NCBI GenBank assembly: GCA_014378465.1
Contig: JACMNQ010000033.1
Span: 5,578-69,577, forward strand
Reading direction: 5' to 3'
Length of the DNA: 64,000 nucleotides
Source: Oligoflexia bacterium
GTDB taxonomy: Bacteria > Bdellovibrionota > UBA1018
The notes under the pieces were generated by a model, which worked only from the letters and a program-made list of their open reading frames with translations, did not search any database and was not told the DNA's origin. Positions 9,706 through 25,562 of the stretch are shown here, in pieces; the stretch's first letter is position 1, and each line of letters begins with the position of its first letter. A program made the position numbers and the translations under genes.

Positions 9706-10535
9706 ATAACAAAGCCCTGACCCTGTCACTTTTCATCGGAGCCTTTGCCGTCTTCATGGTGCAAAGCTATGTTGGAAGCAAGGAAGAGGAAGCCAAGAAG
9801 AAATTCGGCACTGAGGTCCTCGTCGTGAAAGCGAAGCGCGATATCAAGGAACAGGAGACCATCAACGAGACGGCTCTTGAGCTGGCGCTGATCCCGAAGA
9901 CGTTTCTTGAGCCTGCGTCGGTATCTTTTGAGAAGACTGAAGCGGACAAGGAAACCAATCGCAGCCTGAAGTCCCTCTCCGGAACCATCGCGCTGGTCGC
10001 GATCCGCAAAGGTGAACAGATCACTTACAACAAGATGACAGAACCAGGCATCCGCACCGGTCTCTCGCCTCAGGTGGCTCCGGGCCGCAGAGCCGTATCC
10101 ATTCCGGTCAATGAGACCAGTGGTGTCGCGAAGCTCGTCAAGCCGGGAGACCGCGTGGATCTGATCGCCGTTCTCGATATGGGCGGCGGCAAGGAAAACA
10201 AGATCGCCAAGACCATCTTTCAGGATGTCGTCGTGCTGGCGGTCGGACGAAACGTCACCAATAACGTGGCTCGCGTCGTGGAGATGGATGGAAATCGCGA
10301 AAAGGTGAAACCACTGTCTGAAGATTTCAGTTTCACTTCCGTCACTCTCGAAGTTGAACCGGCGCAGGCACAGACCCTGGCGCTCGTCATGGCGAACGGT
10401 GAAAATGCGATCACTCTCTCCCTGCGCAACAATGATGACACTGAACGAGTTGGCCTCAGCTCCTCCATGGCTGGCGACGTGCTCGGAACCGAAGCTGCTC
10501 GAGTGCAGAGAGGCATCGCCACAGGTAAACGATGA
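9702..10535 (+). CDS. cpaB: Flp pilus assembly protein CpaB/RcpC
   Basis: SAF-like VVKAKRDI; GRRAVSIPV..GV..LVKPGDRVDL; QDVVVLAVG; VTLEV. Confidence 0.9.
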   Translation: MNNKALTLSLFIGAFAVFMVQSYVGSKEEEAKKKFGTEVLVVKAKRDIKEQETINETALELALIPKTFLEPASVSFEKTEADKETNRSLKSLSGTIALVAIRKGEQITYNKMTEPGIRTGLSPQVAPGRRAVSIPVNETSGVAKLVKPGDRVDLIAVLDMGGGKENKIAKTIFQDVVVLAVGRNVTNNVARVVEMDGNREKVKPLSEDFSFTSVTLEVEPAQAQTLALVMANGENAITLSLRNNDDTERVGLSSSMAGDVLGTEAARVQRGIATGKR

Positions 10536-12307
10536 TGAAACGTCTTTTGAGTCCGATCACCTTCGCGCAGCTTCTGTTCCCCTTGATTCTCACCGGAGTC
10601 AATGCGCCGATTCATGCCTGGGCACAGGACACTCGCGCCGCACCTCAAGGAGATGCAGCGGGTGACGGCGGCAAAGCGGCAGTCGCCAAAACTGCCCCTG
10701 CGAAGTCTTCGACCGAAATCGCCCCCGATGACGCTTATACTTCGGATGCATCGGATACTCCGACCGAAGAGGTGCCCTCCGGATCCCGGAAGAAGAAACC
10801 CAAGAATTTCAGAAAATCACGCCTGACCCATGAGACTTCTGAAGGGGTGGCCGATCGCAGACGCATTCTCCTGACCACGGGCGAAGACCGTGCGGTGGAT
10901 CTGGACTTTGACGTGGAGGCCGGAGCCAATGGCATTTCGACCGGCAATCCGCAGGTCGTTCTCACCACTCTGGTCCGCATCGGGGATCAGCGCAGACAGA
11001 TCATCTTCAAACCTCTGAAGGCGGGAGAAACCACCGCGACCGTGAGAGATCCGGACGGAAGTATCCGCCTGATCTTCGACGTCGTCGTCACGGGCAACAA
11101 TCTGCTGAGGCGCGCCGGCGAAATGCGTGAACTTCTGCGCGATGTCGAAGGCATTGATATCCGAGTCGTGGGCCAGAAAGTCGTCATCGACGGCGAAGTG
11201 CTCGTGCCCTCCGATTACGCTCGTCTCTTTTCAGTCGTGACCGATGCATCGTACTCCGGCGTCGTCATGAACCTCGCGACCCTTTCTCCCTTCGCGATGC
11301 AGCTCCTGGCCAAGAAGATTCAGGAAGACATCAATACTTTTGCCACTCAGGTGAAGACTCGTGTCGTGAATGGCATGATCTTTCTTGAAGGAACCGTCGA
11401 TAATGTGGACCAGGCGAAGCGCGCTGCTGAAGTCGCGCGACTGTACCTACCGGAAGTTCGTCCCGGCAATCCCCTGATGAAGGATCAGAGCGCGCAGATT
11501 CTCGGAAACCGTCCCCTGGTTCAGAATTTTCTCGTGATCAATCCTCCGCCCCCGAAGAAGCAGGAAAAGCTGGTCCGAGTGACCGTGCATTTCGTCGAAC
11601 TCGACAAGGATTACAACAAAGTCTTCGCCTTCAAATGGGCTCCTGGGTTCACGGCTGATCCCTCGATCGCTTTCGGCGGAACGGCTGCCGGTGGCGCTGG
11701 TGCCGCGGGCACCTCATTCACGGGCACGATTTCCAGCCTCTTTCCCAAGCTTCAGAGCGCGCAATCCGCCGGCTACGCGCGAGTGCTGAAGACCGGTACC
11801 GTGATCGTTCGAAGTGGAAAACCCGCCCATCTCGAGGAGACGACTGACTTCGCTTCGACCGCCCTCAACAATCTCGGACAGCCTGTCGCTCAGCCAGCGA
11901 CCAAAGTGGGCCTGAGCGTGGATCTGACGCCACAGATTCTCGGCCAGAGTGAAGACATTCAGCTCGACCTCAAGCTCACGCAGAGCAATGTCACGGGTCG
12001 AGCCCCCGCATCAGGTCCTCCCACCACTTCGAATCACACGGTCACGACCGCCATCTACGTCAAGTCCAATGAGAGCGCCGCCGTGGGCGGAGTCGTCTCG
12101 GCCGACGTGGGCACGGATTTCAACAAGGATGATCCGAGACCTGGATCCTTCACCGGTACCACGGATGAACTCTTCAATCTGATGCGCTCCAAGAATTATC
12201 GAAAGAAGAAGTCTCAATTCGTCATTTTCGTCACTCCACAGATCGTGGAAAACGCATCTGAAGGCACGGAAGACCTGAAAAAGAATTTCAGGGTAAAGGT
12301 GAAATAA
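10532..12307 (+). CDS. rcpA: Tad secretin RcpA/CpaC with BON-like domains
   Basis: Signal peptide; pilus N-terminal domain (KAGETTATV); BON-like segments; V.V.FVEL and VIFVTPQIV secretin motifs. Confidence 0.82.
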   Translation: MMKRLLSPITFAQLLFPLILTGVNAPIHAWAQDTRAAPQGDAAGDGGKAAVAKTAPAKSSTEIAPDDAYTSDASDTPTEEVPSGSRKKKPKNFRKSRLTHETSEGVADRRRILLTTGEDRAVDLDFDVEAGANGISTGNPQVVLTTLVRIGDQRRQIIFKPLKAGETTATVRDPDGSIRLIFDVVVTGNNLLRRAGEMRELLRDVEGIDIRVVGQKVVIDGEVLVPSDYARLFSVVTDASYSGVVMNLATLSPFAMQLLAKKIQEDINTFATQVKTRVVNGMIFLEGTVDNVDQAKRAAEVARLYLPEVRPGNPLMKDQSAQILGNRPLVQNFLVINPPPPKKQEKLVRVTVHFVELDKDYNKVFAFKWAPGFTADPSIAFGGTAAGGAGAAGTSFTGTISSLFPKLQSAQSAGYARVLKTGTVIVRSGKPAHLEETTDFASTALNNLGQPVAQPATKVGLSVDLTPQILGQSEDIQLDLKLTQSNVTGRAPASGPPTTSNHTVTTAIYVKSNESAAVGGVVSADVGTDFNKDDPRPGSFTGTTDELFNLMRSKNYRKKKSQFVIFVTPQIVENASEGTEDLKKNFRVKVK

Positions 12308-14481
12308 TGGCCGGTCACATCATCGCAGTCGTCGGTGGAAAAGGGGGAGTGGGCAAAAGCGTTTTTGCCGCGAATCTCGCCATTTCGTACCTGCAGGAAT
12401 TCAAACAGCGCCCACTGATCGTCGACCTGGATCTGAGCAGCCTCGGAGATCAGAACATCATCCTGGGCCAGAGCCCTCAGAAGAACATCGTCGATGTTTC
12501 CAAGATGCCTCCGGGACCCATTGATCCCAAGAGTCTGGCGCCGTACATGGTCAATGCTCCTGCCGGCTACAGTTACATCGGTGCCCCTCGTGATGCGATC
12601 ATCGCTCGTGATCTGGATTTGGACGGTCTAGGTCGTTTCTACAAGGCAATCACCCAGGTTTTCAATCTCACGGTCGTGGATTGTGGCAATGGGACGGACG
12701 CGCACGCTCTGAAGACTTTTGAGTATGCCACCGCGATCTTCGTCGTCACGACTGCTGACGTGATTGTCGTGAATCAGACGAAGAGGGTCCTTGCCAAGAT
12801 CCAGGAACTGCTGTTTCCACCGGAAATGGTTCAGATCATCATCAATCGCTTCTCGCAGAACAACATCATCAATCCGCAGATCATCCAGAAGAATCTGAAT
12901 CGCGCGATCTTCGCCGCGATCCCGGAAGACGTCAATTCCGCGGACAGCTGCCTCGCCAAGAGCACTCCGCTCTGCATCGGCGTGCCGAACGCTCCCGTGT
13001 CACGCGCGTATCACGATCTCGTGCGAAAGATTCAGCAGACCAATCTTCTGGAGAATCTGGCCAAACTCAAAAAGCCCACGGGGGTGGCAGCCAAAGCTCA
13101 GGCAGCAGCTCTCAGTCTGGTTCCAGGCGGCGGCGGTGGCGCTTCAGGCACTGAAGGTGCGGGCGGCCCGAGTGGTCGAAGTGCATTCGGGTTTCTCGAT
13201 CCCTGGACTCTGATGAAGTTGCGACTGCACAAGGCTCTTGTTGAAAAGATGGACCTCAAGAAGACCAACACGGATACCGGCGATCCGAAGCAGAAGGCCG
13301 TGCTTCGTGAGAAGACCCAGAAAGTCGTTGTCGAAGTGCTGAACAACGAGGACACGTCGTCGCTCCTGAGCACTCGCGAACTCAAGTCACAGATGATCAA
13401 GGAAGTTCTGGACGAGGCGCTCGGCCTCGGTCCCCTCGAGGATCTCCTGGCGGATGATTCGGTGACTGAAATCATGGTCAATGCCCGGGATCAGATCTAC
13501 ATCGAAAAAGGTGGGAAACCCACCATGTCCAAGGTCACCTTCAGCAGTGAGCAGCAGATGATGAATGTGATTGAACGGATCGTCACTCCGCTCGGCCGAC
13601 GAGTGGATGAGAAAGTTCCATTTGTGGATGCTCGACTTCCGGACGGCTCCCGAGTGCACGTGATCATTCCACCCCTTGCGCTGCGTGGACCGACCATCAC
13701 CATTCGAAAGTTCCCCAAGAAGCGCATTGAAGCCCGGGATCTGGTCGGCTTTGGCTCGATGACTGAAGAAATCTCCGATTTTCTTCGCTGCTGCGTCGAG
13801 GCCAAGCTCAATATCGTCGTTTCAGGCGGTACCGGCTCGGGTAAGACGACGCTTCTGAACGTGCTTTCCAATTTCATCCCGGCTTCCGAGCGCATCATCA
13901 CTGTTGAAGATTCAGCGGAGTTGCAGCTGGGGCAGGACCATGTGGTTCGTCTTGAGACACGCCCGAAGAACATCGAAGGTGAAGGCGAAGTCAGTATTCG
14001 TGATCTCATCAAATGCTGCCTGCGAATGCGACCTGACCGAATCGTGGTCGGGGAGTGCCGTTCCGGCGAAGCGCTGGACATGCTTCAGGCCATGAATACC
14101 GGTCACTCCGGATCCCTGACGACCCTGCACGCGAACAATCCCCGGGAGTGCATTTCCCGTCTTGAAACCCTGGTGATGATGGCCGGTCTCGGCCTGCCCG
14201 CCAAGGCAATCAAGGAGAACATCGCTTCAGCGGTCAATCTGATCATCCAGCAGAGCCGCCTGAGTGACGGTACCCGAAAAGTGACTCATATCAGTGAAGT
14301 CACCGGGATGCAGGGCGAAGTGATCAGTCTCCAGGACATCTTTCTGTTCAAGCAGGAAGGCCTGGACAAGAAGCGCAAGATCATCGGACGTTTCGTGCCG
14401 ACCGGTTTCATTCCAAAGTTCGTCGAGGAGATGGAAGCCAAGGGGATGAAGATTTCACGTGGACTGTTCGCTTCGAAATGA
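12307..14481 (+). CDS. tadA: TadZ/CpaE-TadA/CpaF fusion ATPase
   Basis: N-terminal MinD/ParA-type Walker A GGKGGVGKS; C-terminal CpaF motifs GGTGSGKT, LRMRPDRIVVGE and AMNTGH. Confidence 0.92.
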   Translation: MAGHIIAVVGGKGGVGKSVFAANLAISYLQEFKQRPLIVDLDLSSLGDQNIILGQSPQKNIVDVSKMPPGPIDPKSLAPYMVNAPAGYSYIGAPRDAIIARDLDLDGLGRFYKAITQVFNLTVVDCGNGTDAHALKTFEYATAIFVVTTADVIVVNQTKRVLAKIQELLFPPEMVQIIINRFSQNNIINPQIIQKNLNRAIFAAIPEDVNSADSCLAKSTPLCIGVPNAPVSRAYHDLVRKIQQTNLLENLAKLKKPTGVAAKAQAAALSLVPGGGGGASGTEGAGGPSGRSAFGFLDPWTLMKLRLHKALVEKMDLKKTNTDTGDPKQKAVLREKTQKVVVEVLNNEDTSSLLSTRELKSQMIKEVLDEALGLGPLEDLLADDSVTEIMVNARDQIYIEKGGKPTMSKVTFSSEQQMMNVIERIVTPLGRRVDEKVPFVDARLPDGSRVHVIIPPLALRGPTITIRKFPKKRIEARDLVGFGSMTEEISDFLRCCVEAKLNIVVSGGTGSGKTTLLNVLSNFIPASERIITVEDSAELQLGQDHVVRLETRPKNIEGEGEVSIRDLIKCCLRMRPDRIVVGECRSGEALDMLQAMNTGHSGSLTTLHANNPRECISRLETLVMMAGLGLPAKAIKENIASAVNLIIQQSRLSDGTRKVTHISEVTGMQGEVISLQDIFLFKQEGLDKKRKIIGRFVPTGFIPKFVEEMEAKGMKISRGLFASK

Positions 14482-14507
14482 AGCACCATTGAACCAGAGG
14501 GTATAGC

Positions 14508-15374
14508 TTGATCGTCAAACTCATAGGACTGGGAGCGTTCGGCATCAGCGTCGTGCTCTTCTCCTATCATTACAATCAGCGATTTCTGGATTGGCTGAGG
14601 TTTCAGTCCCTGGGCACTCGTGACTACATCGCCGAGAAGCTCGCGATGATGTTCATCGAAATCCCGCCCCAGAGGATTCTGCTCGCCCAGTTCCTTCTCA
14701 GCTTCGGGCTTGGGGTCATGGTCTTTCTCGCCTTTCTTCCCAAGCTCTTTCCAGGCATTCCTTTCGCGATTGTGGTGACCATCCTCGGTTGGAAAGCCCC
14801 AAAACCCGTGGTCGATTGGATGTTTCAACGACGCTTGAACAAGTTCGTGCTTCAGATGGTGGATGCCCTCAGTCTGATGTCCAACGGGTTGAAGTCCGGA
14901 CTTTCGGTGGCGCAGTCCATGGGACTGGTGACCCAGGAAATGCCGAATCCGATCAAACAGGAGTTTTCCCTGGTTCTGAATCAGAACAAACTTGGCGTCT
15001 CGCTGGAAGAGGCTTTCAACAACCTTGCCAAACGGGTCACCACGGATGACGTGGAGATGTTCGTGACTTCGATCAACATCCTCAAGGAAACCGGCGGAAA
15101 TTTGGCGGAAACCTTTGACACGATCACCACGACCATTCGCGAGCGAATCAAGATTGAGAGCAAAATCGCGGCCATGACCGCAATGGGTTTCTATCAGGGG
15201 TTGATCGTCATGGCGATCCCGCCGGGGCTGGGACTGGTCTTCTATCTCAGTGATCCAGAATTCATGATGCCTCTGTTTACTACTGCAATCGGCTGGATTA
15301 TAATCATGGTGATCATCGCGCTGGAAGCGGTGGGATTTTTCGTGATCATGAAAATTATCAAAATTGACGTGTAA
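14508..15374 (+). CDS. tadB: TadB-like T2SSF pilus platform protein
   Basis: NGLKSGLS, ETGGNLAE and IRERIKI motifs; follows tadA. Confidence 0.9.
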   Translation: MIVKLIGLGAFGISVVLFSYHYNQRFLDWLRFQSLGTRDYIAEKLAMMFIEIPPQRILLAQFLLSFGLGVMVFLAFLPKLFPGIPFAIVVTILGWKAPKPVVDWMFQRRLNKFVLQMVDALSLMSNGLKSGLSVAQSMGLVTQEMPNPIKQEFSLVLNQNKLGVSLEEAFNNLAKRVTTDDVEMFVTSINILKETGGNLAETFDTITTTIRERIKIESKIAAMTAMGFYQGLIVMAIPPGLGLVFYLSDPEFMMPLFTTAIGWIIIMVIIALEAVGFFVIMKIIKIDV

Positions 15375-15459
15375 ACGAAGGGTATTTGATAAATACTTGA
15401 AGTTCAGCAAAAAATTTCGTTTTTTGGGTCGAGTTCATCAGAATCATCAGGAGATCAAG

Positions 15460-17157
15460 ATGTCCGTTAAAAGGATTTTTTCGGGTACGGCAGGAGTCGT
15501 CACGTTTTTGGCGGCAGCATTCATGGGAGGCGTGTCTACGGCTCATGCGAATGTCAGTTTGAAAAATGGTAACTTCTTCATCGGTTACACGGATATCGTC
15601 TATCCGGGTGGTTTCGAACCCAAGATCGAGCGTGTTTACAACTCGAAGACTCCGTACAACGGCATGTTCGGCTGGGGCTGGGGCAATGAGTATGAAGTCT
15701 ACATGTCCGTCTCCGCGGACGGCAGCGTCGTGGTCAACGAATACGGCGGCGGAGCGCAGAACCGCTTCAATCCGGTCGCCTTCAAGGAAAATGAACTCAA
15801 CGCCGCGGTTGACAACATCGCGCAGACCGCCCAGAAACTCGGAGTGGCTGGCAGTGCGGATCAGCTTGATAGTTACAAGAAGCACCTGAAGTCAGATGCG
15901 ACTTTCAGAAACGAGGAATGGCAGAAGTTCAAGGCGCAAGGGAAGATCCAGGCCCGTGTGCTTCCGACTGGTACCCAGCTCCAGTCCAACCGTTTCAGCT
16001 ACCAATACATCACCAAGGTGGTCGATGGTTACGTTCGCAGTTTCGACAGCGGTAAACTGGAAAAGTTTTCCAACGATGGTCGCCTGGTTCGCATCTCCGA
16101 CAAGAACAACAACTTCATTGACCTGACTTACGGCAAAGAAGGCAAGCTTTCGAAGATCGTCGACAACTTCAATCGCAAGATCTACTTCACTTTCAACACT
16201 CACGGTCAGGTTGAGAAGATCCAGGGCGAAAACAACAAGGAAGCGTCCTACAAGTACAACGACATGGGCGAACTGGTTTTTACCAAGGATACCGATAGCA
16301 GCGTCTATACTTACAAGTACGGTTCAGACAAGCGCCACAACATGGTTGAAATCGGTTACTCTGACAAAACCAGCATGCAGCTCGCTTACTATGGTCGTGA
16401 CGATCATGAAAACGTGAAGAGCGTGAAGGACCGTGACGGAACTCGCACTGAATACACCTATGAAAAGGCTTCTGACAAGGGTCACTCCAAGGTGGCGGTT
16501 GCGGTGAAGGGAAGCGACGGCAAGGTCGTTTCATCCAGCAAGTACGAATACTACGTCAAGTCCAAGGCCGACGGAGAAGAGTGGACTTACAAGATGCTCA
16601 CCAACCTCGACGGCGACATCACTGAAACCACTTACAATGAATGCTGTGGATTGCCGCTCCTGATCAAGCGCGGTGGCGAAGAGACCGCCTTTGAATACGA
16701 CACTCGCGGCCACGTGACCAAGAAATCGACGCCGACGGACGTGACAGAGCTGGCTTACGACGCGAAAGTCGGCAAGGTGACGAAGGTCAGTCGTTATTCC
16801 AAGGGTGACAAGAAGCAGAACAACTGGTCCACTTTTCAATACGATGAAAAGGGCAACCTGGTCTTCGCCAAGAACTCTGAAAACAAGGGTGTGAAACTGT
16901 TCTACGACACGAATGGTCGCATCAAGAGCATGGTCGACCAGAGCAAGCGCCGCATTGACTTCAAATACAACGAAAACTCCAAGCCGATTGAAATCACGGA
17001 CCCAGCCCTCGGATCCATCACTGTGAGCTACGCGAACAGTGGCGAAGTGAAGAAGGTCGAAAGCACGGCGGGTCGTAAGATCGCCATGCAGGTGACTTCG
17101 GCGTTTCAAAACCTTCTGGACATCATTCGTCCCGCAGGCGTGAGCTTGTCGTTTTAA
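15460..17157 (+). CDS. Secreted YD/RHS-repeat protein (Bd0109-like, DUF6531-type N-terminus)
   Basis: AGGAG RBS; signal peptide ending AHA; NVSLKNGNF..ERVYNS..GMFGWGW N-terminus; many Y(D/N)xxG repeats; no RHS-core/toxin tail. Confidence 0.85.
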   Translation: MSVKRIFSGTAGVVTFLAAAFMGGVSTAHANVSLKNGNFFIGYTDIVYPGGFEPKIERVYNSKTPYNGMFGWGWGNEYEVYMSVSADGSVVVNEYGGGAQNRFNPVAFKENELNAAVDNIAQTAQKLGVAGSADQLDSYKKHLKSDATFRNEEWQKFKAQGKIQARVLPTGTQLQSNRFSYQYITKVVDGYVRSFDSGKLEKFSNDGRLVRISDKNNNFIDLTYGKEGKLSKIVDNFNRKIYFTFNTHGQVEKIQGENNKEASYKYNDMGELVFTKDTDSSVYTYKYGSDKRHNMVEIGYSDKTSMQLAYYGRDDHENVKSVKDRDGTRTEYTYEKASDKGHSKVAVAVKGSDGKVVSSSKYEYYVKSKADGEEWTYKMLTNLDGDITETTYNECCGLPLLIKRGGEETAFEYDTRGHVTKKSTPTDVTELAYDAKVGKVTKVSRYSKGDKKQNNWSTFQYDEKGNLVFAKNSENKGVKLFYDTNGRIKSMVDQSKRRIDFKYNENSKPIEITDPALGSITVSYANSGEVKKVESTAGRKIAMQVTSAFQNLLDIIRPAGVSLSF

Positions 17158-17179
17158 ACCGGTACAAGAGGAATAGAAG

Positions 17180-17380
17180 ATGAAAAAGCGCAGTATTTTG
17201 ATGTTGGCAGTGATGATGATCTCTCTGAATACCCTGGGTTCCGCCGTCTGGGCCGCGGAGAACGAAGTTTCATGTGAAGCTCCGTCTGATGCGAAGGCAA
17301 AGGACCTCAGTGAGACGAAGGAAGGTTCGAAGGATACCAAAGCTTCGACTGCTTCTGGACTCGAAGAACAGAAGAAGTGA
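17180..17380 (+). CDS. Small secreted peptide, positional equivalent of Bdellovibrio Bd0108 (Hit); copy 1
   Basis: AGAGG RBS; Sec signal ending VWA; mature AENEVSCEAPSD plus a charged low-complexity tail; directly downstream of the RHS gene. Confidence 0.72.
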   Translation: MKKRSILMLAVMMISLNTLGSAVWAAENEVSCEAPSDAKAKDLSETKEGSKDTKASTASGLEEQKK

Positions 17381-17417
17381 TCTCTTCATCCTGATTCAAT
17401 GCCTGATTTTCTGAAGA

Positions 17418-17450
17418 GCCCGGCTTCCCGAGTGGAAGTCGGGCCTTTTC
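17418..17450 (+). terminator. Intrinsic terminator closing the Tad/hit operon
   Basis: GCCCGGCTTCC-cgagt-GGAAGTCGGGC followed by CTTTTC. Confidence 0.7.
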
Positions 17451-18366
17451 ATTGTGCGCTGCCGGAGGCGGCCATGCCCAGGCGCAGCTCTTCATGAATC
17501 AGCCGGTCCATCCTGCGGGCCGAGAGCACCTTGACCTTGAGGCCATGTCTTCGCTTCAGTTGGTAAGTGGCCTGGGGGCCGAGTTTGAAGAGTGCGCGCA
17601 CGACTTCAATGTCCTCCTGAAGAGATGGCCACATGAAGCGAGGAATGTTGTCGTTGCTCAGGAGAGCTTCCAGAAACTCGTGGAGAAGCGCTTCGCTGCG
17701 ACCTTTCAGGAAATCCATCAGGAGTTTCTCCCAGGCGCGTGGAAACTCCGTCTGGTAGATCCAGGGAGGCGAAGCCCGGGAGATCTTGGCCGGATAGGAA
17801 AAGCGCGGCCTGCTCAGGCTGCACGCGTAAATGAGTCTGAGAAGAGCGGTATAGCCCACCTTGATCTTCGAGCGGTGCTTGAAGCATCCGAAGACCTCAA
17901 ATCCCTGGGAGCTGATCTCCCGGCAATTGCTGAGGCGAAACTCCAGCTTCAGAGATGCACCCGGATTTTTCGCGTTATCCGATGAAGTCACCTCCTTCAC
18001 TCCGAGGTAGAGATAGGAGTCCTCGTGGGTGTCCGCGATGTTGTAAGGGGGCCGTATCGCATGCAGGAGCTCATTTTCCCGCAGAAGGGCCTGGGCCTCA
18101 GTCGGATGTTCTTCCCAGCTGATGAACTTCACCTGTTCCAGCATCTCCATGATGCGGTCTTCGGTGCGTCCGGGCTTCATCTGAAAGTAGCAACTGAGGC
18201 GAGTACGGAGGCTCTTCGCCTTTCCGATATACAGAATGGTGTCATCAGTCGACTTCATCAGATAAACGCCGGGAGTTTCGGGAATCGCTTTCTGAAACTC
18301 GGGGGTGAACTGGAGGGTGAGGGGATTTTCGTAGCTGAAGCTGTGTTTGATCAAGGTGCGGCTCAT
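17449..18366 (-). CDS. GIY-YIG nuclease (UvrC N-terminal/Cho-like)
   Basis: PETPGVY..ILYIGKAKSLRTRL..YF, ALLRE..L and PPYN motifs. Confidence 0.85.
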   Translation of the reverse strand: MSRTLIKHSFSYENPLTLQFTPEFQKAIPETPGVYLMKSTDDTILYIGKAKSLRTRLSCYFQMKPGRTEDRIMEMLEQVKFISWEEHPTEAQALLRENELLHAIRPPYNIADTHEDSYLYLGVKEVTSSDNAKNPGASLKLEFRLSNCREISSQGFEVFGCFKHRSKIKVGYTALLRLIYACSLSRPRFSYPAKISRASPPWIYQTEFPRAWEKLLMDFLKGRSEALLHEFLEALLSNDNIPRFMWPSLQEDIEVVRALFKLGPQATYQLKRRHGLKVKVLSARRMDRLIHEELRLGMAASGSAQ

Positions 18367-18487
18367 GGATTAAAGGAAATATCAGATCGAACCTGCCAAC
18401 TACAAGAGCGGCGTCCAGTCGTCCGCTTTTTTTAAACAAATTTCAGGCAACAACGAACGGCGAAGTGTACGGGCTGCGAACGGCTGA

Positions 18488-19618
18488 TCACAGGTAGAAG
18501 TGCGCGATGAAATAGAGCAGTTGATCCTGACCATCGGGAGCGAGCGCCTTCCGAGTCTGAATCTGGTAGGCGAGGTTCAGGTCCAGATGGGGCCGCGGAA
18601 AAAAACGGGTGCCCACCGTGTATGCATTTTTCAGGGACTGAGACTGCGCGAAGTCCAGGCGTGAGAGCTCCTGGATGCCGTAGAAGTGAAGACCTTTGAT
18701 GATCTCATAGCCGACTTGAGTGTAAGTCAGGAGCCCGTTGGTATTTGCGGTGTAGCGTCGCTGGTAATCTAACTCGGAAAGAACGTAGAATTTGTCAGTG
18801 ATCCCAAGCAACAGGTAAGGTCCCACGACTTCCCGCTTGTCGTTCTTCTGTCCAGGTTGCGTCGACTGGCGGCCATAAAAGTTGCTGAAGCCCAGTTTGG
18901 ATTTTGGCGAGAGCGCGTAGGCGACGGTGCCCGAAAACCCTGATTCCGAATGGATCGAATCATCGTCAGGTCTGCCAAAAATCATGGCAATCTGTCCATT
19001 CCACGGATCACCGAGAAAGGAATACTCCGCGTTGTAAGTTTCGCTCCCGGCGTTCCAGCCCAGATCCTTTCGGACGTAGAGGGAATGGTTGTCGGTGTTG
19101 ATTCCATAAGGTCGTTTGAATTTGCCGACTCGAACGTAGTTCTCTTCGTTCAAATGATAGAGCAGGTAGTGTCGCCGGCTGATGAATTCGCTCGCCCAGA
19201 TCCGGTCAGGGTATTTCTGATCCGCTCCCAGCGTACCGACGACGGAGAGCTTGTTGACTTTGACCTCGGCTTCGAGATCAGCCTGCATCCGGATGAACTG
19301 TCCCTCGCGCACGCGCGGAGTGTTGTGGTCATACTGAAGGGCGCGGATGTCTCCTCCCGCATTGAGCCAGGTGGGAAGTTCAAGAAGACCATAGGCGAAC
19401 TTGGACTCTTTTTCGGTTCCGTTCATGGACAATGCTTCGAGTGACAGGGCTCTGCCGTACTCCGTGAGGAGGCCGCCCCCCGAGGGGCTGACGTGACAGG
19501 CAGTGCAGTTCACGTATGAATGGCGGATCATTTCCGGGAAGCAGAAGGCACGCTGAGGAAGGAGAAGAGTGAAAGCAAGAGACAGAAACGCAAACCGCGA
19601 CAGTTTTGAAATTTTCAT
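18488..19618 (-). CDS. Monoheme cytochrome c-beta-barrel fusion (Cyc2-like architecture)
   Basis: Signal peptide; FPEMIRHSYVNCTACH..LTEYGR N-terminus; amphipathic beta-strands; C-terminal HFYL. Confidence 0.65.
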   Translation of the reverse strand: MKISKLSRFAFLSLAFTLLLPQRAFCFPEMIRHSYVNCTACHVSPSGGGLLTEYGRALSLEALSMNGTEKESKFAYGLLELPTWLNAGGDIRALQYDHNTPRVREGQFIRMQADLEAEVKVNKLSVVGTLGADQKYPDRIWASEFISRRHYLLYHLNEENYVRVGKFKRPYGINTDNHSLYVRKDLGWNAGSETYNAEYSFLGDPWNGQIAMIFGRPDDDSIHSESGFSGTVAYALSPKSKLGFSNFYGRQSTQPGQKNDKREVVGPYLLLGITDKFYVLSELDYQRRYTANTNGLLTYTQVGYEIIKGLHFYGIQELSRLDFAQSQSLKNAYTVGTRFFPRPHLDLNLAYQIQTRKALAPDGQDQLLYFIAHFYL

Positions 19619-20238
19619 TTTTTTGACGAAGTGTACGAAGATCTGCTCTGGACCTGAATCTGAACGTTTTCAACCACGGTGATCCCGGCGAAAGAAGGAA
19701 TGGCGATCTTGTAATCTGTCAGCTTCACCGGAAAGTGTGCATCCACACTGAGTGTGTCGGCTGCTCGGGTCAGGACCAGACTGCCGTTCACGGGCTGGGT
19801 CACACCATGAAGAGTGAGTTGTCCCTGAAAAGGAGTCGTGCAGGTGGCGGTCGCGGTTTCAGTGCAGTTTTTCGGGACAGTGAGATGGGTGAGCGTGAGT
19901 CTGGAATCCGGGAACTGTTCCACCTGGAGGTACTTTTTCTTCATGTGCTCGTCGCGCATCTTCATGCCGGTCTCAAGACTGTCGAGATGAAAAGTCGCTT
20001 CGCCGGTCAACTGGTCAGCTACCAGTTTGAAGTTTCCAACCGGTGCTCCCCCTTTGCCATGAATCTTCAGAGCACTGGGGTTTCCAACGGCTTCGAACTC
20101 CACTTTGCCTTCTGAGTTGAGCACCAGATCCGCTCCTCCCGCGGCGAATGCCGAAAAAGTTGCTACCATCACGACAGAGGTCAGGGTGAGAATCATGATC
20201 GGTCCGGGCCTGCCGAGAAACCTTTTTGAGAGCATCAT
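19615..20238 (-). CDS. YceI family protein
   Basis: TGMKMRDEHM, GQLTLHGVTQPV and VKLTDYKI motifs; signal peptide. Confidence 0.88.
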   Translation of the reverse strand: MMLSKRFLGRPGPIMILTLTSVVMVATFSAFAAGGADLVLNSEGKVEFEAVGNPSALKIHGKGGAPVGNFKLVADQLTGEATFHLDSLETGMKMRDEHMKKKYLQVEQFPDSRLTLTHLTVPKNCTETATATCTTPFQGQLTLHGVTQPVNGSLVLTRAADTLSVDAHFPVKLTDYKIAIPSFAGITVVENVQIQVQSRSSYTSSKK

Positions 20239-20275
20239 GAGCGGTTCTCCAGTTCAATCTTGGTGTGGCCAAAGT

Positions 20276-21415
20276 TCAGTTTTCAGGTGAGCCCTGTTCA
20301 ATCCAGGTCTTGAGAAGCTGAAAGTTGTCGGTCAGAAGTGCCTTGCGCGGAGGCATGGTCCCGTTGACAATAACTGCCTCTTCAACCAGGTCAATATTAA
20401 CTTTGACGTTGGAATAGGTTTCAAGATTGACCCCTCCTTTTTTGCCATGGCAACGAATGCAGCTGGGAGTGAAAACCTGGTCTCTGACCTGCGCATAAGT
20501 GACTCGAAGGACTGGAACCGGAACCGGAACAGGCGCAGGAACGGGAGCAGATTCCGGTGCAGGGACGATGACGGGGGCAGTTGGAGTCTCTGGAGCAGGA
20601 GTTGGTGAAGGAGCAGGAGCTGGTGAAGGAGCCGGTGCAATGATGATTGCAGGGGGAGGAGGCGAAGTCACGGGAGGGACCGCTTCCAAAGCCCCTTCGG
20701 GAGCGCCTTGCTCAATCCAGCTTTTCAGGAAAAGCGTGTCGTCGTCGGAAAGGGGATGACGCGGAGGCATCGACTTCTCAGTGATGGCTTCGCGCGTGAT
20801 CAACTCCAGGTTTTCTTTCACGTGGGAGTAGGTTTCCAGATTCACGCCCCCCGCATGTCCATGACACTTCACGCAGCTCGGAGTGAAAATGCGCTGCTTG
20901 ACCTGTGCGTAGGAAATCACCCCGCCCGGAACGGGCAGTGTTGGAGTACTCGAGGGGAGGGGAGTCGAGGAAGCTTCGGGCGCGGGTGGCGCGATGATCG
21001 GGAGCGTGGGATCGCGCACGAATTCAGGTGCGCCCTGATCCAGCCAGCTTCCCAAAAGTTCTTTTTCGGCGCCAGTGAGCGGAGTCCTGCTGGAAGGAGG
21101 CATGGTGCCCTGAAGGAGCGCTTCCTGTTCGATGCCTCGAGCGTGGCTGAAGACTTCAGCGTACGATTCGAGATTCACTCCACCAGCGCTGCCGTGACAC
21201 CGAACGCAGTGAGGAGCGAAGACCGTATTTCTGACCATTTCATAACTGACGGTGGCGGTCGTGGTCCCGAGGCGAGGTCCGAGTGCCTGGGATGAACTCT
21301 TTGGGTTTGAATAGTTGCAGGAGCTGAGTGCCGCGAGGCCGCTCAGCAGAAGCAGACTCAAGCTGGGAATGGACGATTTCAGAGTAAAGGTGAAGCGGAA
21401 GTTCAAAGTGGACAT
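20276..21415 (-). CDS. Lipoprotein with three tandem class I cytochrome c domains and Pro-rich linkers
   Basis: Lipobox LSSC; CVRCH, CVKCH and CIRCH, each followed by GGVNLE.Y, MPP and W..QG.PE. Confidence 0.82.
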   Translation of the reverse strand: MSTLNFRFTFTLKSSIPSLSLLLLSGLAALSSCNYSNPKSSSQALGPRLGTTTATVSYEMVRNTVFAPHCVRCHGSAGGVNLESYAEVFSHARGIEQEALLQGTMPPSSRTPLTGAEKELLGSWLDQGAPEFVRDPTLPIIAPPAPEASSTPLPSSTPTLPVPGGVISYAQVKQRIFTPSCVKCHGHAGGVNLETYSHVKENLELITREAITEKSMPPRHPLSDDDTLFLKSWIEQGAPEGALEAVPPVTSPPPPAIIIAPAPSPAPAPSPTPAPETPTAPVIVPAPESAPVPAPVPVPVPVLRVTYAQVRDQVFTPSCIRCHGKKGGVNLETYSNVKVNIDLVEEAVIVNGTMPPRKALLTDNFQLLKTWIEQGSPEN

Positions 21416-21586
21416 GCGAGTTCCTTTGGCTGCCTGTGCAGGGCGGCTGGCCGCTTCGTAACACTTTCATCGCGGAGACACAACGTGCACGCCTGAAGTT
21501 CGTCCACCGCTCCGGCTCGCCTCGCATGGGGTAGTCATTGAATATCAGGGATGTATCATCGGCGGAAACCGCTTTCACCTGCACAG

Positions 21587-21605
21587 GTGTCTTCTTTTTC
21601 GACAC
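21587..21605. promoter_or_regulatory. Candidate enhancer (bEBP upstream activator) palindrome
   Basis: GTGTC-N9-GACAC (TGT-N11-ACA) about 60 bp upstream of a sigma54 site; IHF-like TTTCAAGGCCTTG on the minus strand at 21627-21639 lies between them. Confidence 0.45.
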
Positions 21606-21666
21606 TTTTAAATCGAAGGCGGTGCCCAAGGCCTTGAAAGTAAAGGACACTGCAATGTACTCACGG

Positions 21667-21682
21667 TGGCACTTCGCTTGCT
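21667..21682 (+). promoter_or_regulatory. sigma54 -24/-12 promoter
   Basis: TGGCAC-ttcgc-TTGCT, a perfect consensus match 34 nt before the ATG. Confidence 0.8.
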
Positions 21683-21716
21683 TCATAGCGTGCAAGAGAG
21701 AAACAAGGAGAACACT

Positions 21717-21923
21717 ATGAACTTTAAGAAATTCGCGAAACTTTTCATGCTTTTCACGCTCATGAACCTGATCGGGACCGTTGTGTGGGCCAGTGAGAAT
21801 ACCGATTCCGCAGCATCCTGCGAATCCATGTCTGACGTTCAGGCCAAAGCGGTTGCCCCCGCCGCAGCAAGCTCCACTTCCCAGCCTGCTGCAGGATCTG
21901 TCGCTGCTCCCGCCGGCAGATGA
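21717..21923 (+). CDS. Small secreted Hit-like peptide; copy 2 (68 aa)
   Basis: AAGGAG RBS; signal ending VWA; mature SENTDSAASCESMSDVQAK aligns with copy 1. Confidence 0.75.
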   Translation: MNFKKFAKLFMLFTLMNLIGTVVWASENTDSAASCESMSDVQAKAVAPAAASSTSQPAAGSVAAPAGR

Positions 21924-21961
21924 TCGTTTCCCTTTAGAGAATCCCCCTTTCAATCCCCTTC

Positions 21962-21993
21962 AAGGCTCTCAGGATACTCCTGAGGGCCTTTTT
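21962..21993 (+). terminator. Intrinsic terminator
   Basis: AAGGCTCTCAGGA-tac-TCCTGAGGGCCTT followed by TTT. Confidence 0.75.
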
Positions 21994-22166
21994 CATTTGC
22001 GTCATCAGAGAGCGGAGTCATCCCCCCGGCGTGATCAGCTCCCGGCGGCATGCGGAACGTCCTGGGCTCTGTTCAATTCTCGCGCATGAACCTCAGCTCG
22101 TCTCCACTCTTGAGCTTCACTTGGACGCCCTTCGGCCTGACTCGGATGCCTGTGTCTTTTCTGAGC

Positions 22167-22204
22167 TGTTTCAAAACGAGTCAGATCTGTCCAAAGATTG
22201 AACA
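22167..22204. promoter_or_regulatory. Tandem candidate enhancer sites
   Basis: TGTTTCAAAACGAGTCA and TGTCCAAAGATTGAACA, starts 21 bp apart, about 90-130 bp upstream of a sigma54 site. Confidence 0.4.
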
Positions 22205-22295
22205 CCTGCCTAGCCCTGTGTTTTCAGTGACCCTCAATCAATTTCGACACGGATATAATAGCTATCAATTTCATATACTTGAATGTGGTGCATTG

Positions 22296-22311
22296 TGGCA
22301 TCGCCGTTGCA
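22296..22311 (+). promoter_or_regulatory. sigma54 -24/-12 promoter
   Basis: TGGCAT-cgccg-TTGCA, preceded by an AT-rich tract. Confidence 0.75.
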
Positions 22312-22424
22312 ATTACCTGTGTAAGCAGAGACTCACCATTGAGGGTGGCTCCCTGTGAGAGAGAACAAACTGTAGAGCGGTGGACCTTGAGAAGGTCTGT
22401 TGTTTGATTAACGAGGAGAGCAGT

Positions 22425-22637
22425 ATGAAAAAAGTAAAGACCCGTTTCCTGTTGGTGATGATCGTCGGATTCCTTGCGGGCCCAACCGCATTGGCTTCTG
22501 AAAACAAGTGGAACGAAGTTCCAGTTGAAGCTCGCAACTGCGGCGCTCAGCAGGACAAGAATTATTATGAAACCTCTGACCTGAATTCCGCTCCAGCGGC
22601 AGGCTCTTCAAGCTCTTCAGCTTCCAGCATCCGTTGA
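22425..22637 (+). CDS. Small secreted Hit-like peptide; copy 3 (70 aa)
   Basis: GAGGAG RBS; signal ending ALA; mature SEN...NCGAQQD plus a PAAGSSSSS tail. Confidence 0.7.
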   Translation: MKKVKTRFLLVMIVGFLAGPTALASENKWNEVPVEARNCGAQQDKNYYETSDLNSAPAAGSSSSSASSIR

Positions 22638-22668
22638 TCGGAAACGATCACGTGTGTTGATTTGAAGA

Positions 22669-23232
22669 TCAGTGAGTCTGAGTGGAACCGTTGAGGTCTC
22701 GGATCAAAGCCTTGAGCTTCTGCCGTTCACTCGAAGGAATATCCGTCACGGGCGCATTCTCTTTCCCTCCGCTTCCCGCGGGAGGAAGAGGATGTGCCCT
22801 TTTTTCGTGGATCGAATCATCATAGCCGGGACGATTCTCCTGACGAAGACCGTGGCGACCGCTGACGGTGGTTTCGGAACCCTCATCGCTGAGTGAACGG
22901 TTCAGTCCGTCGTTGTGCTTTCTCATTCCGTCCGCTGCATCCTTCGCCTGCTGGAAAGCTGACGGATGGGGAGAGGCGTGCGAGCCGGAATCTGAAGAAG
23001 TGGACGAGGTCACGTCCTTGGCGATCCCTTTGGCGGATTTGCTCACTTCCTTCAGAGTATTCTCGGACCATCCTGCCGCTTTGCGAAAGTTGGGCGACTT
23101 CTCCACTTTCGCGATGTGGCTCTGGATGTGCCCATTGAGGGTCTTGCCATCCCACTTAACCCAGTTGCCGAGAATCAGTATGAACAGGATGAAGAGGGTG
23201 GTCTTGAAGAGAAAGCCGAAGAATTTGATCAT
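22669..23232 (-). CDS. Hypothetical membrane-anchored protein
   Basis: N-terminal TM, disordered middle and C-terminal helix; 4-nt overlap with the upstream gene. Confidence 0.65.
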   Translation of the reverse strand: MIKFFGFLFKTTLFILFILILGNWVKWDGKTLNGHIQSHIAKVEKSPNFRKAAGWSENTLKEVSKSAKGIAKDVTSSTSSDSGSHASPHPSAFQQAKDAADGMRKHNDGLNRSLSDEGSETTVSGRHGLRQENRPGYDDSIHEKRAHPLPPAGSGGKENAPVTDIPSSERQKLKALIRDLNGSTQTH

Positions 23233-23717
23233 ACTTGGATTGAGGCTCCTGAGAGTCCTGGGCTCGACATCAGCACAAGGAGTTGAAGTTCAATGAGCGG
23301 ACCGGCAGCGCCGGCCTGCTGCAACTGATGATGGTAGCGATGAGCGGGAACGGGTTGGCCGGATTTTTCAAGCGCCTGCAGCGCCGGCAGAACCTGGGAC
23401 TGAAGCTGAAGCGAAGTCAGAAAGCGCGGAGGCGAGATCATCACATCCCAGCCCTGTTCGAGACTGAGCTGGTTGGCCATTCGACTGGCCAGGACATTTC
23501 CCATCTCAGTGTACGTCGAGCCGTCCAGCCCCTCGTCAAAGAGAAACAGGATGAGTCCGGTCGTATCGCCGTAGAGATTGAAGCTGACTCCACTGCGACC
23601 TTTCAGATCCAGGGCCTGGACGTGATCGATCGGAGCCTGCTTTTCGACATTTCCCAGGTGATAGAATGTGAAACTTTCCGGAAAGGCGCCAATGAGTTTT
23701 GTGAGGTTCTCCAGCAT
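23229..23717 (-). CDS. CheX/CheC-like phosphatase
   Basis: ExxN motif (TEMGNVLAS) and ISPP motif; downstream of cheY. Confidence 0.65.
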   Translation of the reverse strand: MLENLTKLIGAFPESFTFYHLGNVEKQAPIDHVQALDLKGRSGVSFNLYGDTTGLILFLFDEGLDGSTYTEMGNVLASRMANQLSLEQGWDVMISPPRFLTSLQLQSQVLPALQALEKSGQPVPAHRYHHQLQQAGAAGPLIELQLLVLMSSPGLSGASIQV

Positions 23718-23722
23718 GAGTC

Positions 23723-24136
23723 TCAGCCGACTTCCTGCTGCTCACGGTGGCCGCGAGTCGCCATGCGATCGTCGCCGGCCAGGGCCCGAGCCACGGTATT
23801 GAGAACATCCGACGAGCTGAAGGGTTTGACGACGTAATCTTTCGCGCCCACGTTGATCGCTTCCATCACGAGGTTGGCCTGTCCCATCGCCGAGATGATG
23901 ATGACCTTGGCTTCCTTGTCCATCTTGAGAATCTTCTGAGTGGCTTCGATGCCGCTCATCTTGGGCATGACGACGTCCATGGTGACCACATCGGGTCTGA
24001 GCTTGGCGTACATCTCGATCGCCTCGGCTCCGTCCCCAGCTTCGCCAACCACCTGGTAGTGAGCCTCTGTCAGAATGTCTGAGAGTGTTTTTCGAACGAA
24101 TGGTACATCATCGACAATGAGAACGGTCTTCGCCAT
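23723..24136 (-). CDS. cheY: CheY-like single-domain response regulator
   Basis: IVDD, phosphoacceptor in TMDVVMP, SA and VKPF motifs. Confidence 0.88.
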   Translation of the reverse strand: MAKTVLIVDDVPFVRKTLSDILTEAHYQVVGEAGDGAEAIEMYAKLRPDVVTMDVVMPKMSGIEATQKILKMDKEAKVIIISAMGQANLVMEAINVGAKDYVVKPFSSSDVLNTVARALAGDDRMATRGHREQQEVG

Positions 24137-24251
24137 GAATTACTTCCCTGTAAGCGGCACCCTTTCTCGAAATGAAAGGTGCCTTTCAGCAACGCAGGCA
24201 TTCATTTGCCTGCCGTACCAGTGTAACGCTCCCGTGTAAAAAAGCTAGATG

Positions 24252-25562
24252 TCAATCTTTTGGCGTGGCTTCGTGGCCATCGCGATCATCTCGCGATGGG
24301 GAGGGGGTCAACTCGATCAGCACGAGCTCAATCTGCCGGTCGGACGCCTTGCGGACGGTGAATTTCAGGGAACCTGCAGGCGTATTGAAGTAGAGGTCAT
24401 CCGCCAGTTCCGGGATGCGGCCGAACTGCTGCAGCAGGAACCCGCCGAGAGTTTCATATTCGCCTTCAGGAAGTTCCAGTTTCAGATCTTCATTGATCTG
24501 CAGAATTTCCATCTTGGCCTGGACGAGCCAGCTGTTTTCGCCCATCTGCTTGTGGGTATTGACGTCAGTGTCGTGTTCGTCACTGATCTCTCCCACGATT
24601 TCCTCGACGATGTCCTCGAAAGTGAGCACTCCCACCGCACCTCCGTATTCGTCGACCACCACGACCATTTCACTCTCTTCGATTCGCATTTCCTGAAGGA
24701 GATCCTCAAGGGACTGCGTCTCGGCGACGTAATGCGCCGGAGTGATGTGAGCACGGATGGTCTGAGTGGTGTCCGCGGCGAGAAAAAGGTCCGAAATCTC
24801 GAGCACGCCCACGATGTTGTCGATTCGGCCCGAAAAGACCGGCATGCGCGAATGGCGATGGGATTTGAAGCGCTCGAGCGCTTCGGCGATGGTGCTCGCT
24901 TCGGCGATGGCTTCGACCTTGATCAGCGGAATGAGCGCATGTTTGGCTTCTGTGTCCTTGAAATCAAAGATGCGCTTGATCATCTTTCGTTCGCTGGACT
25001 TGATCTCTGATTCCTTGCGACTGTAGGACAGGAGCTGACGGATTTCTTCACGCATCCCCTGGCGCTTTCCGGTGAGCAATTCCTCGATCGGACCGAGAAG
25101 TCGTGAGAGTCGCGAGGTGTAACCGGAAAGGATGCGGGTCACGGGATAGAAGATCCAGAAGATGGACTGCACGGCGGGCGCGACCCACGGAGCCAGTTTC
25201 GTGGCGTACTTCTGGTAGATGGTCTTCGGGATCAGTTCACCGAGAAGCACGACCAGCGGTGAAGTGATCGCGATGGCGATCAGATCGGCGTGTCGGCTTC
25301 CGATCTTGTGCACATAAAGGGAGATGAGGGACGAGATGCTGATCACGCAGAGGCTCGTCATCAGAAGGGTGGAAGAGAGAATGCGCTCCGGATGATTCGC
25401 GAGTTCAAGTGCGAGCTTGGCTCTCTGGGAGCCCTGGCCCGCACGCGCTTTCAGGGTCAGCTTGTCGGCGGACAGGAGTGCGATTTCGCTGCCGGAGAAA
25501 AAACCTTCGATCAGAAGAAACGGCGGAATCAGGAGTGCCAGCGTGGTCAAAGTGAGTTCCAT
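24252..25562 (-). CDS. CNNM/hemolysin family protein (DUF21, CBS pair, CorC_HlyC)
   Basis: FFSGSEIAL, GELIPK, HSRMPV, VVDEYGG, EDIVEEIVGEI and YETLGG motifs. Confidence 0.9.
   Translation of the reverse strand: MELTLTTLALLIPPFLLIEGFFSGSEIALLSADKLTLKARAGQGSQRAKLALELANHPERILSSTLLMTSLCVISISSLISLYVHKIGSRHADLIAIAITSPLVVLLGELIPKTIYQKYATKLAPWVAPAVQSIFWIFYPVTRILSGYTSRLSRLLGPIEELLTGKRQGMREEIRQLLSYSRKESEIKSSERKMIKRIFDFKDTEAKHALIPLIKVEAIAEASTIAEALERFKSHRHSRMPVFSGRIDNIVGVLEISDLFLAADTTQTIRAHITPAHYVAETQSLEDLLQEMRIEESEMVVVVDEYGGAVGVLTFEDIVEEIVGEISDEHDTDVNTHKQMGENSWLVQAKMEILQINEDLKLELPEGEYETLGGFLLQQFGRIPELADDLYFNTPAGSLKFTVRKASDRQIELVLIELTPSPSRDDRDGHEATPKD

Follow-up and report, generated by a model that had tools for sequence, protein, structure and literature searches.

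Three small secreted peptide genes of an apparent hit-type locus in an uncultured Bdellovibrionota lineage

The locus and its peptide genes

The window analyzed here is a stretch of 64,000 nucleotides (nt) from an Oligoflexia bacterium of the phylum Bdellovibrionota (assembly GCA_014378465.1, contig JACMNQ010000033.1, positions 5,578 to 69,577 of the forward strand), and the subject of this report is three small open reading frames (ORFs) within it, named P1, P2, and P3. With a probability of about 0.6, they belong to a hit-type (host-interaction) locus of an uncultured lineage within this phylum and encode its small secreted peptides, P1 being the pepA-type peptide, P2 an extra pepA-like copy, and P3 the pepB-type peptide; here, pepA designates the gene immediately downstream of a Bd0109-like RHS gene, and pepB the one that meets a convergent membrane-protein gene. 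The order of the locus is conserved: Tad genes, Bd0109-like RHS gene, pepA, pepB, and then the convergent Bd0103-like gene with a cheY-type gene; the peptide genes are likewise documented here in their position, architecture, conservation, and coding character. The peptide genes and their terminators are as follows, with the predicted signal peptide cleavage marked by a slash and lengths given in amino acids (aa):

17180-17380, + strand: P1, pepA-type (bd0108 position); 66 aa, VWA/AEN, S-C-E-A-P-S-D-x3-K, Lys/Glu-rich tail that ends KK
21717-21923, + strand: P2, additional pepA-like peptide; 68 aa, VWA/SEN, S-C-E-S-M-S-D-x3-K, Ala/Pro/Ser tail with R as the last residue
22425-22637, + strand: P3, pepB-type; 70 aa, ALA/SEN, N-C-G motif, Ser/Ala tail that ends SSIR
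17418-17444, + strand: terminator-like hairpin and T run that closes the RHS-P1 unit; 11 pairs, 8 of them G-C
21962-21990, + strand: terminator-like hairpin 3' of P2; 13 pairs, with only a sub-threshold ctRNA match in Rfam (E 0.59)

A first-pass annotation of the window had described three ORFs of 66-70 aa, each with a ribosome binding site, a Sec-type signal, one Cys, and a polar tail, and all these traits are present, as are the peptide strings that it quoted and the shared PAAGS. Shine-Dalgarno (SD)-like motifs lie 6-8 nt 5' of the ATG (GAGG for P1, AAGGAG for P2, and GAGGAG for P3), and each N-terminus has a basic n-region followed by a hydrophobic core and an A-x-A type site; the signal peptides, here and in all the counts below, were called with a crude in-house rule based on the n/h/c-regions and the A-x-A site, and not with SignalP. 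The mature peptides have one Cys each and, judged from composition only, contain 83-90% polar or disorder-promoting residues and 7-15% bulky hydrophobic ones. P2 and P3 look like separate transcription units, in agreement with the first-pass view of them as stand-alone.

As for databases, NCBI nr already holds P1, P2, and P3, each as a singleton cluster at 90% identity, so that routine gene calling does find these ORFs, and the earlier idea that they are too short and divergent for routine annotation has to be dropped. The best foreign match from tblastn of P1 in 40 relatives reached an E-value of only 0.042, no Rfam family exceeded its threshold over 15000-25000, and the antisense 237-aa frame overlapping P2 was without a Pfam match; a sequencing-run look-up listed no RNA run as carrying the P1-P3 stretch, and the single run listed may come from the source sample.

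The genes that place P1 belong to a Tad/Flp pilus cluster and its terminal RHS gene:

9702-10535, + strand: CpaB of the Tad/Flp pilus; NCBIfam TIGR03177, 2e-45, above cut-off
10532-12307, + strand: secretin of the Tad/Flp pilus; PilQ/GspD-type, 1.2e-11, below cut-off
12307-14481, + strand: TadZ-TadA-type ATPase; TadA-family, 3.4e-99, 332 bits, the cut-off of 373 not being reached
14508-15374, + strand: TadB/C-type membrane protein, part of the Tad/Flp pilus cluster 9702-15374
15460-17157, + strand: Bd0109-like RHS/YD-repeat protein with a signal peptide; Pfam RHS_repeat 2.3e-17, DUF6531 5.6e-11

The RHS gene starts at ATG 15460, with the longest frame opening at TTG 15364, and its product has 34% identity (tblastn) with the Bd0109 protein of G180, the Bdellovibrio genome introduced below. 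P1 starts 22 nt past the RHS stop, with no terminator in the gap, and it is probably co-transcribed with the RHS gene; it thus follows the Bd0109-like gene that closes the Tad cluster, which is the bd0108 position, as the first-pass annotation had it. P2 and P3 lie 4.5 kb and 5.2 kb downstream of the RHS gene, and neither occupies the immediate-downstream position of pepA.

Downstream of P3, a convergent module is encoded:

22669-23232, - strand: membrane-anchored protein in the Bd0103 position; N-terminal transmembrane helix, W-x-G-K/R-T motif, C-terminal ERxKLxxLIxxLN
23229-23717, - strand: possible CheC/CheX-like protein of 162 aa; CheC PF04509 sub-threshold, E 0.21
23723-24136, - strand: CheY-type response regulator; NF041367, 8.7e-35, below cut-off; same strand as the membrane-protein gene

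The CheY-type gene agrees with the first-pass mention of cheY close by. The same source took bd0103 for a paralogue of the peptides, which is not the case: Bd0103 is the membrane-anchored protein of 86 aa that is encoded convergently, and the product of 22669-23232 (- strand) corresponds to it in the window. Regarding the 162-aa protein, it contains S-x3-E-x2-N-x22-P, which we take to be the CheC/CheX phosphatase motif, and in several relatives the membrane-protein gene is likewise followed by a frame of 150-167 aa.

Similarity among the three peptides

P1 and P2 are related as proteins. BLASTP aligns them with an E-value of 4e-7, and their full-length local score of 77, compared with 24.8 ± 4.7 for shuffled sequences, was reached by none of 5000 shuffles; taken by parts, the score was reached by 38 of 5000 shuffles for the mature peptides, by 2 for the first ~20 mature residues, and by 7 for the signal peptides. 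At the DNA level there is no similarity, with 2737 of 5000 codon shuffles reaching the score; resemblance in protein and not in DNA fits an old duplication with selection acting on the protein.

P3 gives no BLASTP alignment with either P1 or P2, and its mature part scores no better against them than shuffled sequences do to any significant degree (1875 of 5000 shuffles reach the score for P1, and 342 of 5000 for P2). The first-pass proposal of a family of three paralogues therefore stands for P1 and P2, and it fails for P3 apart from one short patch; the check that it had suggested, similarity beyond the signal peptide against shuffled controls, divides the trio in the same way. The patch consists of 23 nt in frame, 17260-17282 in P1 and 22511-22533 in P3, with 20 of 23 positions identical; it encodes N-E-V-x-x-E-A just past the signal peptide, it was matched by 1 of 5000 codon shuffles, and it is the sole link between P1 and P3. 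Possibly, it reflects gene conversion between genes that are otherwise dissimilar.

A second feature common to the trio is a short motif. In the 4.04-Mb genome, 1869 ORFs of 50-120 aa carry a signal peptide according to the crude rule; a mature start of the form x-E-N occurs in 8 of them and a single Cys followed by x4-D in 23, while both together are found in P1, P2, and P3 only (0.098 expected), this motif having been defined post hoc from the same three sequences. These data bear on the possibility that all three peptides are interchangeable ligands for one RHS/Tad receptor site and differ mainly in timing. The motif, unique in the genome to the three peptides, speaks for it, and so do the separate SD motifs and terminators of the genes; in addition, the P1-P3 patch corresponds to the N-terminus of Bd0108, which is its Bd0109-binding region (PMC4267844). 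The post hoc origin of the motif counts against it, and further objections come from the comparison of P3 with its own positional class, given below.

The pepA position across relatives

The RHS protein is encoded in 59 of 61 related genomes, and a scan of GTDB species genomes for it yielded 62 loci, nearly all from metagenome-assembled genomes labelled Bdellovibrionota, Oligoflexia, or Bacteriovoracaceae. From 85 loci, 9 with a cut RHS gene were dropped and duplicates were merged, leaving 60. At 56 of these, the RHS stop is followed within 320 nt by a signal-peptide ORF on the same strand; two (L099 and L084) were discarded by eye as spurious, which gives 54, with RHS-pepA gaps from -14 to 239 nt. 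The four loci with no such ORF are L064, for which only 57 nt of downstream sequence exist, L062, one labelled Bryobacterales, and one labelled Planctomycetota. At L084, a pepA-like and a pepB-like ORF lie on the strand opposite to the RHS gene, and the pair appears to be inverted as a unit.

Sequence traits of this positional class are few. Exactly one Cys is found in 47 of 54 pepA peptides; Asp at Cys+5 occurs in 25 of 53, with 3.5 expected from within-sequence shuffles (0 of 5000 reach this count), Lys at Cys+9 occurs in 19 of 53, and Lys is the last residue in 16 of 54, bearing in mind that the related genomes are not independent and that these counts overstate the number of events. Both S-C-E-A-P-S-D-A-K-A-K of P1 and S-C-E-S-M-S-D-V-Q-A-K of P2 fit the resulting C-x4-D-x3-K motif; P3 has Asp at +5 and not Lys at +9. 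P2 also matches the pepA of a genome of the same genus, G001, with an E-value of 0.004.

The pepB position and the convergent membrane protein

With a profile of the window membrane protein, counterparts were recovered at 23 of the 60 loci. At 19 of these 23, the convergent gene is met by another signal-peptide ORF, pepB, with -7 to 118 nt between the two gene ends; P3 is such an ORF, with a spacing of 31 nt. All 19 pepB peptides have one Cys; Gly follows it directly in 8, and Arg is the last residue in 10. P3 aligns with the pepB of G001 (BLASTP E 2e-6, 29% identity over 65 residues), and the two have the GPTALA end of the signal peptide in common. P3 is a member of the positional class pepB, distinct from P1 and P2; the mature profiles of pepA and pepB are unrelated (hhalign, P 0.87).

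Returning to interchangeable ligands, the class to which P3 belongs lacks the pepA motif elsewhere, Asp at +5 not being among the commonest residues and Gly at +1 being present in 8 of 19; x-E-N and C-x4-D are both missing from the same-genus orthologue of P3, the profiles of the two classes are unrelated as just stated, and among the 21 loci with a convergent membrane-protein gene, the window locus is the only one with three peptides. Taken together, it is unlikely that the three peptides serve one receptor site interchangeably.

The position of P3 suggests another scheme, in which pepB acts on or with the Bd0103-like membrane protein and the CheY-type module, as a signalling input separate from the RHS protein. 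The close spacing of the two gene ends in 19 loci is consistent with it, as is the location of pepB in its own unit, outside the RHS operon; moreover, this lineage and Bdellovibrio have the pairing in common, and in Bdellovibrio, too, Bd0103 is followed by a CheY-like gene. On the other hand, convergent genes do not share a transcript, adjacency by itself says little, and the profile-profile link between the window membrane protein and the Bd0103 orthologues is itself weak (P 3.7e-4, probability 36%). A separate input of this kind is a doubtful alternative to the reading preferred here, that of P3 as a second, separately regulated peptide of the pepA/RHS circuit.

The Bdellovibrio locus and the HD100 "sRNA"

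The link to Bdellovibrio could be made precise through a published reverse transcription PCR primer (PMC3818213), for which a single match was obtained among 401 genomes of the phylum: it falls in G180, at the coordinate given in the paper. In G180, an RHS gene of 550 aa (predicted cleavage AFA/LV) is followed by a 101-aa ORF that an exact look-up returned as the hit protein of B. bacteriovorus; its 23-aa signal peptide ending ASA/DEN, N32, D36, C56, and C59 match Bd0108 as described in PMC3818213 and PMC4267844. The mature start of Bd0108, which the first-pass annotation had given as DEN after Ala, is thereby borne out, both by this ORF and by the ASA-DE of PMC3818213. On the 3' side of bd0108 come a strong terminator, then a 66-aa ORF (signal peptide, AAGGAG as SD motif, one Cys), and then, convergent to it, a membrane-anchored ORF of 86 aa that fits Bd0103. 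G180 is related to the window genome at the phylum level only, so that this layout is common to two classes.

Within the genus Bdellovibrio, Bd0109 is found in 44 of 44 genomes. Thirty loci were compared: all encode an orthologue of Bd0108, which has two Cys in 29 of them, a Bd0103-like gene is present at 29, and the pepB-type ORFs between these two genes number one in 23 loci, two in 5, and three in 1. One Cys is present in 35 of 36 of these ORFs, an SD-like motif in 31, and a terminal Arg or Lys in 23; a CheY-like frame follows Bd0103 in the Bdellovibrio loci. Two tandem pepB-type genes occur in several Bdellovibrio species (L133, L134, and L136-L142). Bd0108 orthologues and Bdellovibrio pepB peptides have a C-terminal ending G-[TVN]-[RK] in common, and their mature profiles are weakly alike (P 9.4e-4, probability 22%); both observations hint that the Bd0108 and pepB classes are old paralogues.

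The 66-aa ORF bears on an earlier report. In strain HD100, a "small, non-coding RNA" (sRNA) was placed at 96455-96716, between bd0103 and bd0108, and it was up in all bd0108 mutants (PMC3818213, Capeness et al. 2013). The 66-aa ORF (G180:C1:96483-96683, equal to L112:4484-4684 on the - strand) lies inside this span, and both published primers fall within it. Among its orthologues, 12 equal-length pairs with 75-99% nucleotide identity differ at 15, 8, and 128 sites in codon positions 1, 2, and 3, and for 6 non-overlapping pairs the corresponding values are 8, 4, and 63; this concentration at the third position indicates that the ORF evolves as a coding gene. The HD100 "sRNA" thus coincides with the pepB ORF, and on these sequence grounds it may be read as the pepB mRNA. 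Later database records annotate the ORF as a hypothetical protein, and PMC5941755 lists it as BD_RS00505, of unknown function; in the open literature on bd0108, Bd0109, Bd0103, and the small protein, supplements being outside the search, no link between this ORF and the sRNA was found. If the transcript is that of pepB, its rise upon mutation of bd0108 suggests feedback or compensation.

The four genes between P1 and P2

P1 is split from P2 and P3 by a - strand block at 17449-21415:

17449-18366, - strand: GIY-YIG domain protein; Pfam GIY-YIG 2.2e-11
18488-19618, - strand: possible porin; porin matches weak, E 0.012
19615-20238, - strand: YceI-like protein; Pfam YceI 4.2e-18
20276-21415, - strand: triple cytochrome c repeat protein; Pfam Cytochrome_CBB3 1.6e-13

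The distance from the RHS gene to the membrane-protein gene is 5512 nt here and 664-2491 nt in 20 other loci. Apart from the P1-P3 patch, no convincing repeats flank the block. The 379-aa cytochrome c protein has three internal repeats with one CxxCH each, joined by Pro/Ala-rich linkers, and its gene contains a 97-nt DNA repeat family with 62-70% identity and spacings of 414 and 333 nt. In the same-genus genome G001, a DUF6607 gene (L113:3545-4546, Pfam 1.8e-45) lies between pepA and pepB instead.

Interpretation

The preferred reading, that P1, P2, and P3 are the peptides of a hit-type locus, draws its support from position and architecture, and several results weigh against it. P1 gives no alignment with the pepA of G001, the same-genus genome, nor with Bd0108 itself by BLASTP; mature P1-P3 compared with their positional counterparts (53 pepA and 18 pepB) give median z-scores of 0.2-0.5, near zero; and hhalign detects no similarity between the mature profiles of this lineage and those of Bdellovibrio, with P from 0.85 for Bd0108 to 0.91 for pepB. 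When a profile of 52 foreign pepA peptides was run against the 30,708 small ORFs of this genome, P3 came first, P2 second, and P1 was unlisted; the full-length pepA and pepB profiles mostly detect the signal peptide and the low-complexity tail, so that generic small secreted proteins are matched too, and the mature-only profiles found nothing among the small ORFs of this genome. Furthermore, Bd0108 has a CxxC disulfide, whereas P1-P3 have one Cys with C-x4-D. The near-zero similarity of the mature parts means that homology rests on synteny and architecture, and that the peptides, if counterparts, diverge very fast.

The same profile results raise the question of whether P2, or all three peptides, could be generic secreted or low-complexity proteins, or remnants outside the hit circuit, with P2 perhaps a decaying duplicate. 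None of the three has a Pfam or NCBIfam match, P2 recovered nothing but itself in a word-based search of 5.8 billion clusters, and other small secreted low-complexity proteins of the genome do score with the pepA profile. Nevertheless, similarity between P1 and P2 in protein (0 of 5000 shuffles) and not in DNA is the pattern expected of selection on the protein, P2 retains an intact SD motif, signal peptide, C-x4-D-x3-K motif, and terminator, and the pepA position is kept in 54 of 60 loci, all of which makes a generic or degenerate origin improbable.

Secreted factors under diversifying selection, too, typically combine rapid sequence turnover with one conserved Cys, and the peptides might accordingly be viewed as exported effectors, or as precursors of signal peptides or modified peptides, whose site of action is prey or neighboring cells rather than the periplasm of the producer. 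Some pepA peptides have their Cys at or beside the cleavage site and could be lipoproteins, and UniProt labels Bdellovibrio pepB as 'Lipoprotein'. Still, neither a modification enzyme, nor a dedicated exporter, nor an immunity gene was seen adjoining the peptide genes, and the known member, Bd0108, works in the producer cell (PMC3818213); an action outside the producer appears highly improbable.

As for the mechanism that the hit-type reading would imply, it is modelled on the HD100 pair: Bd0108 binds Bd0109, is disordered, and has a pilus phenotype (PMC3818213, PMC4267844). By analogy, the window peptides would be exported by Sec and remain disordered in the periplasm; the pepA type would bind weakly to the RHS protein and thereby adjust both pilus extrusion and the choice between predatory and prey-independent growth, and pepB would be a second, separately regulated peptide of the pepA/RHS circuit, which might act through either the RHS protein or the neighboring membrane protein and CheY module. 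In this lineage, P2 and P3 became parted from the RHS gene by the four-gene block, and fast divergence would have left only the position, the architecture, the single Cys, and short motifs (C-x4-D-x3-K in pepA and a basic C-terminus).

Regarding the contact with the RHS protein, a mixed disulfide with the peptide Cys was considered and rejected: 9 of 60 RHS orthologues have no Cys, and 8 of these 9 still come with a one-Cys pepA. The RHS protein has a vicinal Cys pair, N-E-C-C-G (window 16630-16650), which occurs in 43 of 60 orthologues and is their only conserved Cys site; it shows no covariation with the peptide Cys. A complex prediction from the RHS alignment and mature P1 scored 0.00, in a run made without controls.

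A broader and rather speculative extension, on balance unlikely, is a phylum-wide circuit with two classes of peptide: pepA would be made together with the RHS protein, pepB would be turned on upon loss of pepA and would signal pilus status via the Bd0103-like protein to the CheY-type regulator, and P2 and the P1-P3 patch would be signs of ongoing ligand diversification.

The interest of these genes comes from Bd0108, the main genetic handle on the choice of the predator between attacking prey and growing without it. Across two classes, the slot of Bd0108 is filled by fast-evolving peptides that are alike in position and architecture and not in sequence, those of the window lineage having mostly one Cys. 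The slot being kept without sequence similarity, a BLAST-based statement that Bd0108 is not conserved is misleading. In turn, the pepB gene is as conserved in position as Bd0108, and its product is a candidate for the component that the switch still lacks, be it a downstream or a compensating one.

Comparison with known systems

The closest characterized system is the hit locus of B. bacteriovorus HD100, an organism of a different class of the phylum. P1 resembles Bd0108 in several respects: each is a small ORF placed right after, and co-oriented with, the RHS gene that closes a Tad cluster, and each product has a Sec signal peptide (a predicted one in P1), an acidic mature N-terminus (A/DEN in Bd0108 and A/AEN in P1), and a polar, low-complexity mature part; the two loci also have cheY-type and small membrane-protein genes downstream. 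They differ in that Bd0108 has 101 aa and P1-P3 have 66-70 aa, in that the VNPGEDPNEA block conserved among the Bdellovibrio Bd0108 orthologues is absent from P1-P3, and in the number of peptides, which is three in the window and two in HD100. As for P3, its likeness is to the 66-aa ORF of HD100 (BD_RS00505), since each is a monocistronic gene that has an SD motif and codes for a one-Cys peptide with a predicted signal peptide, and each is located between pepA and a convergent Bd0103-type gene; the Cys lies 3-6 residues past the predicted cleavage in Bdellovibrio pepB (N-P-K-C-S-H), whereas it is mature residue 15 in P3.

Arrays of this kind are already in print. Two small signal-peptide neighbors of the Bd0109 homologue (BMS_0183/4) were noted in strain SJ in 2014 (PMC4267844), and a paper of 2023 described 20 Bdellovibrionales bins with 2-3 short secreted genes next to their Bd0109 and Bd0103 homologues (PMC10469934). 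Like those of the window, these arrays consist of 2-3 short signal-peptide genes (57-133 aa) that adjoin Bd0109 and Bd0103 homologues, and their products have little or no similarity to Bd0108; unlike here, the excerpts of the two papers give no motif, single-Cys rule, or gene-split array for their peptides. The first-pass suggestion of an undescribed system therefore does not hold, and the window trio is this lineage's version of the known hit-locus peptides. What the analysis adds is the rule of one Cys, the pepA motif C-x4-D-x3-K of this lineage, and the two positional classes, together with the extra copy P2, the P1-P3 patch, and the reading of the HD100 sRNA as the pepB mRNA. In conclusion, the window trio itself represents an ordinary, lineage-specific elaboration of the hit peptide array.

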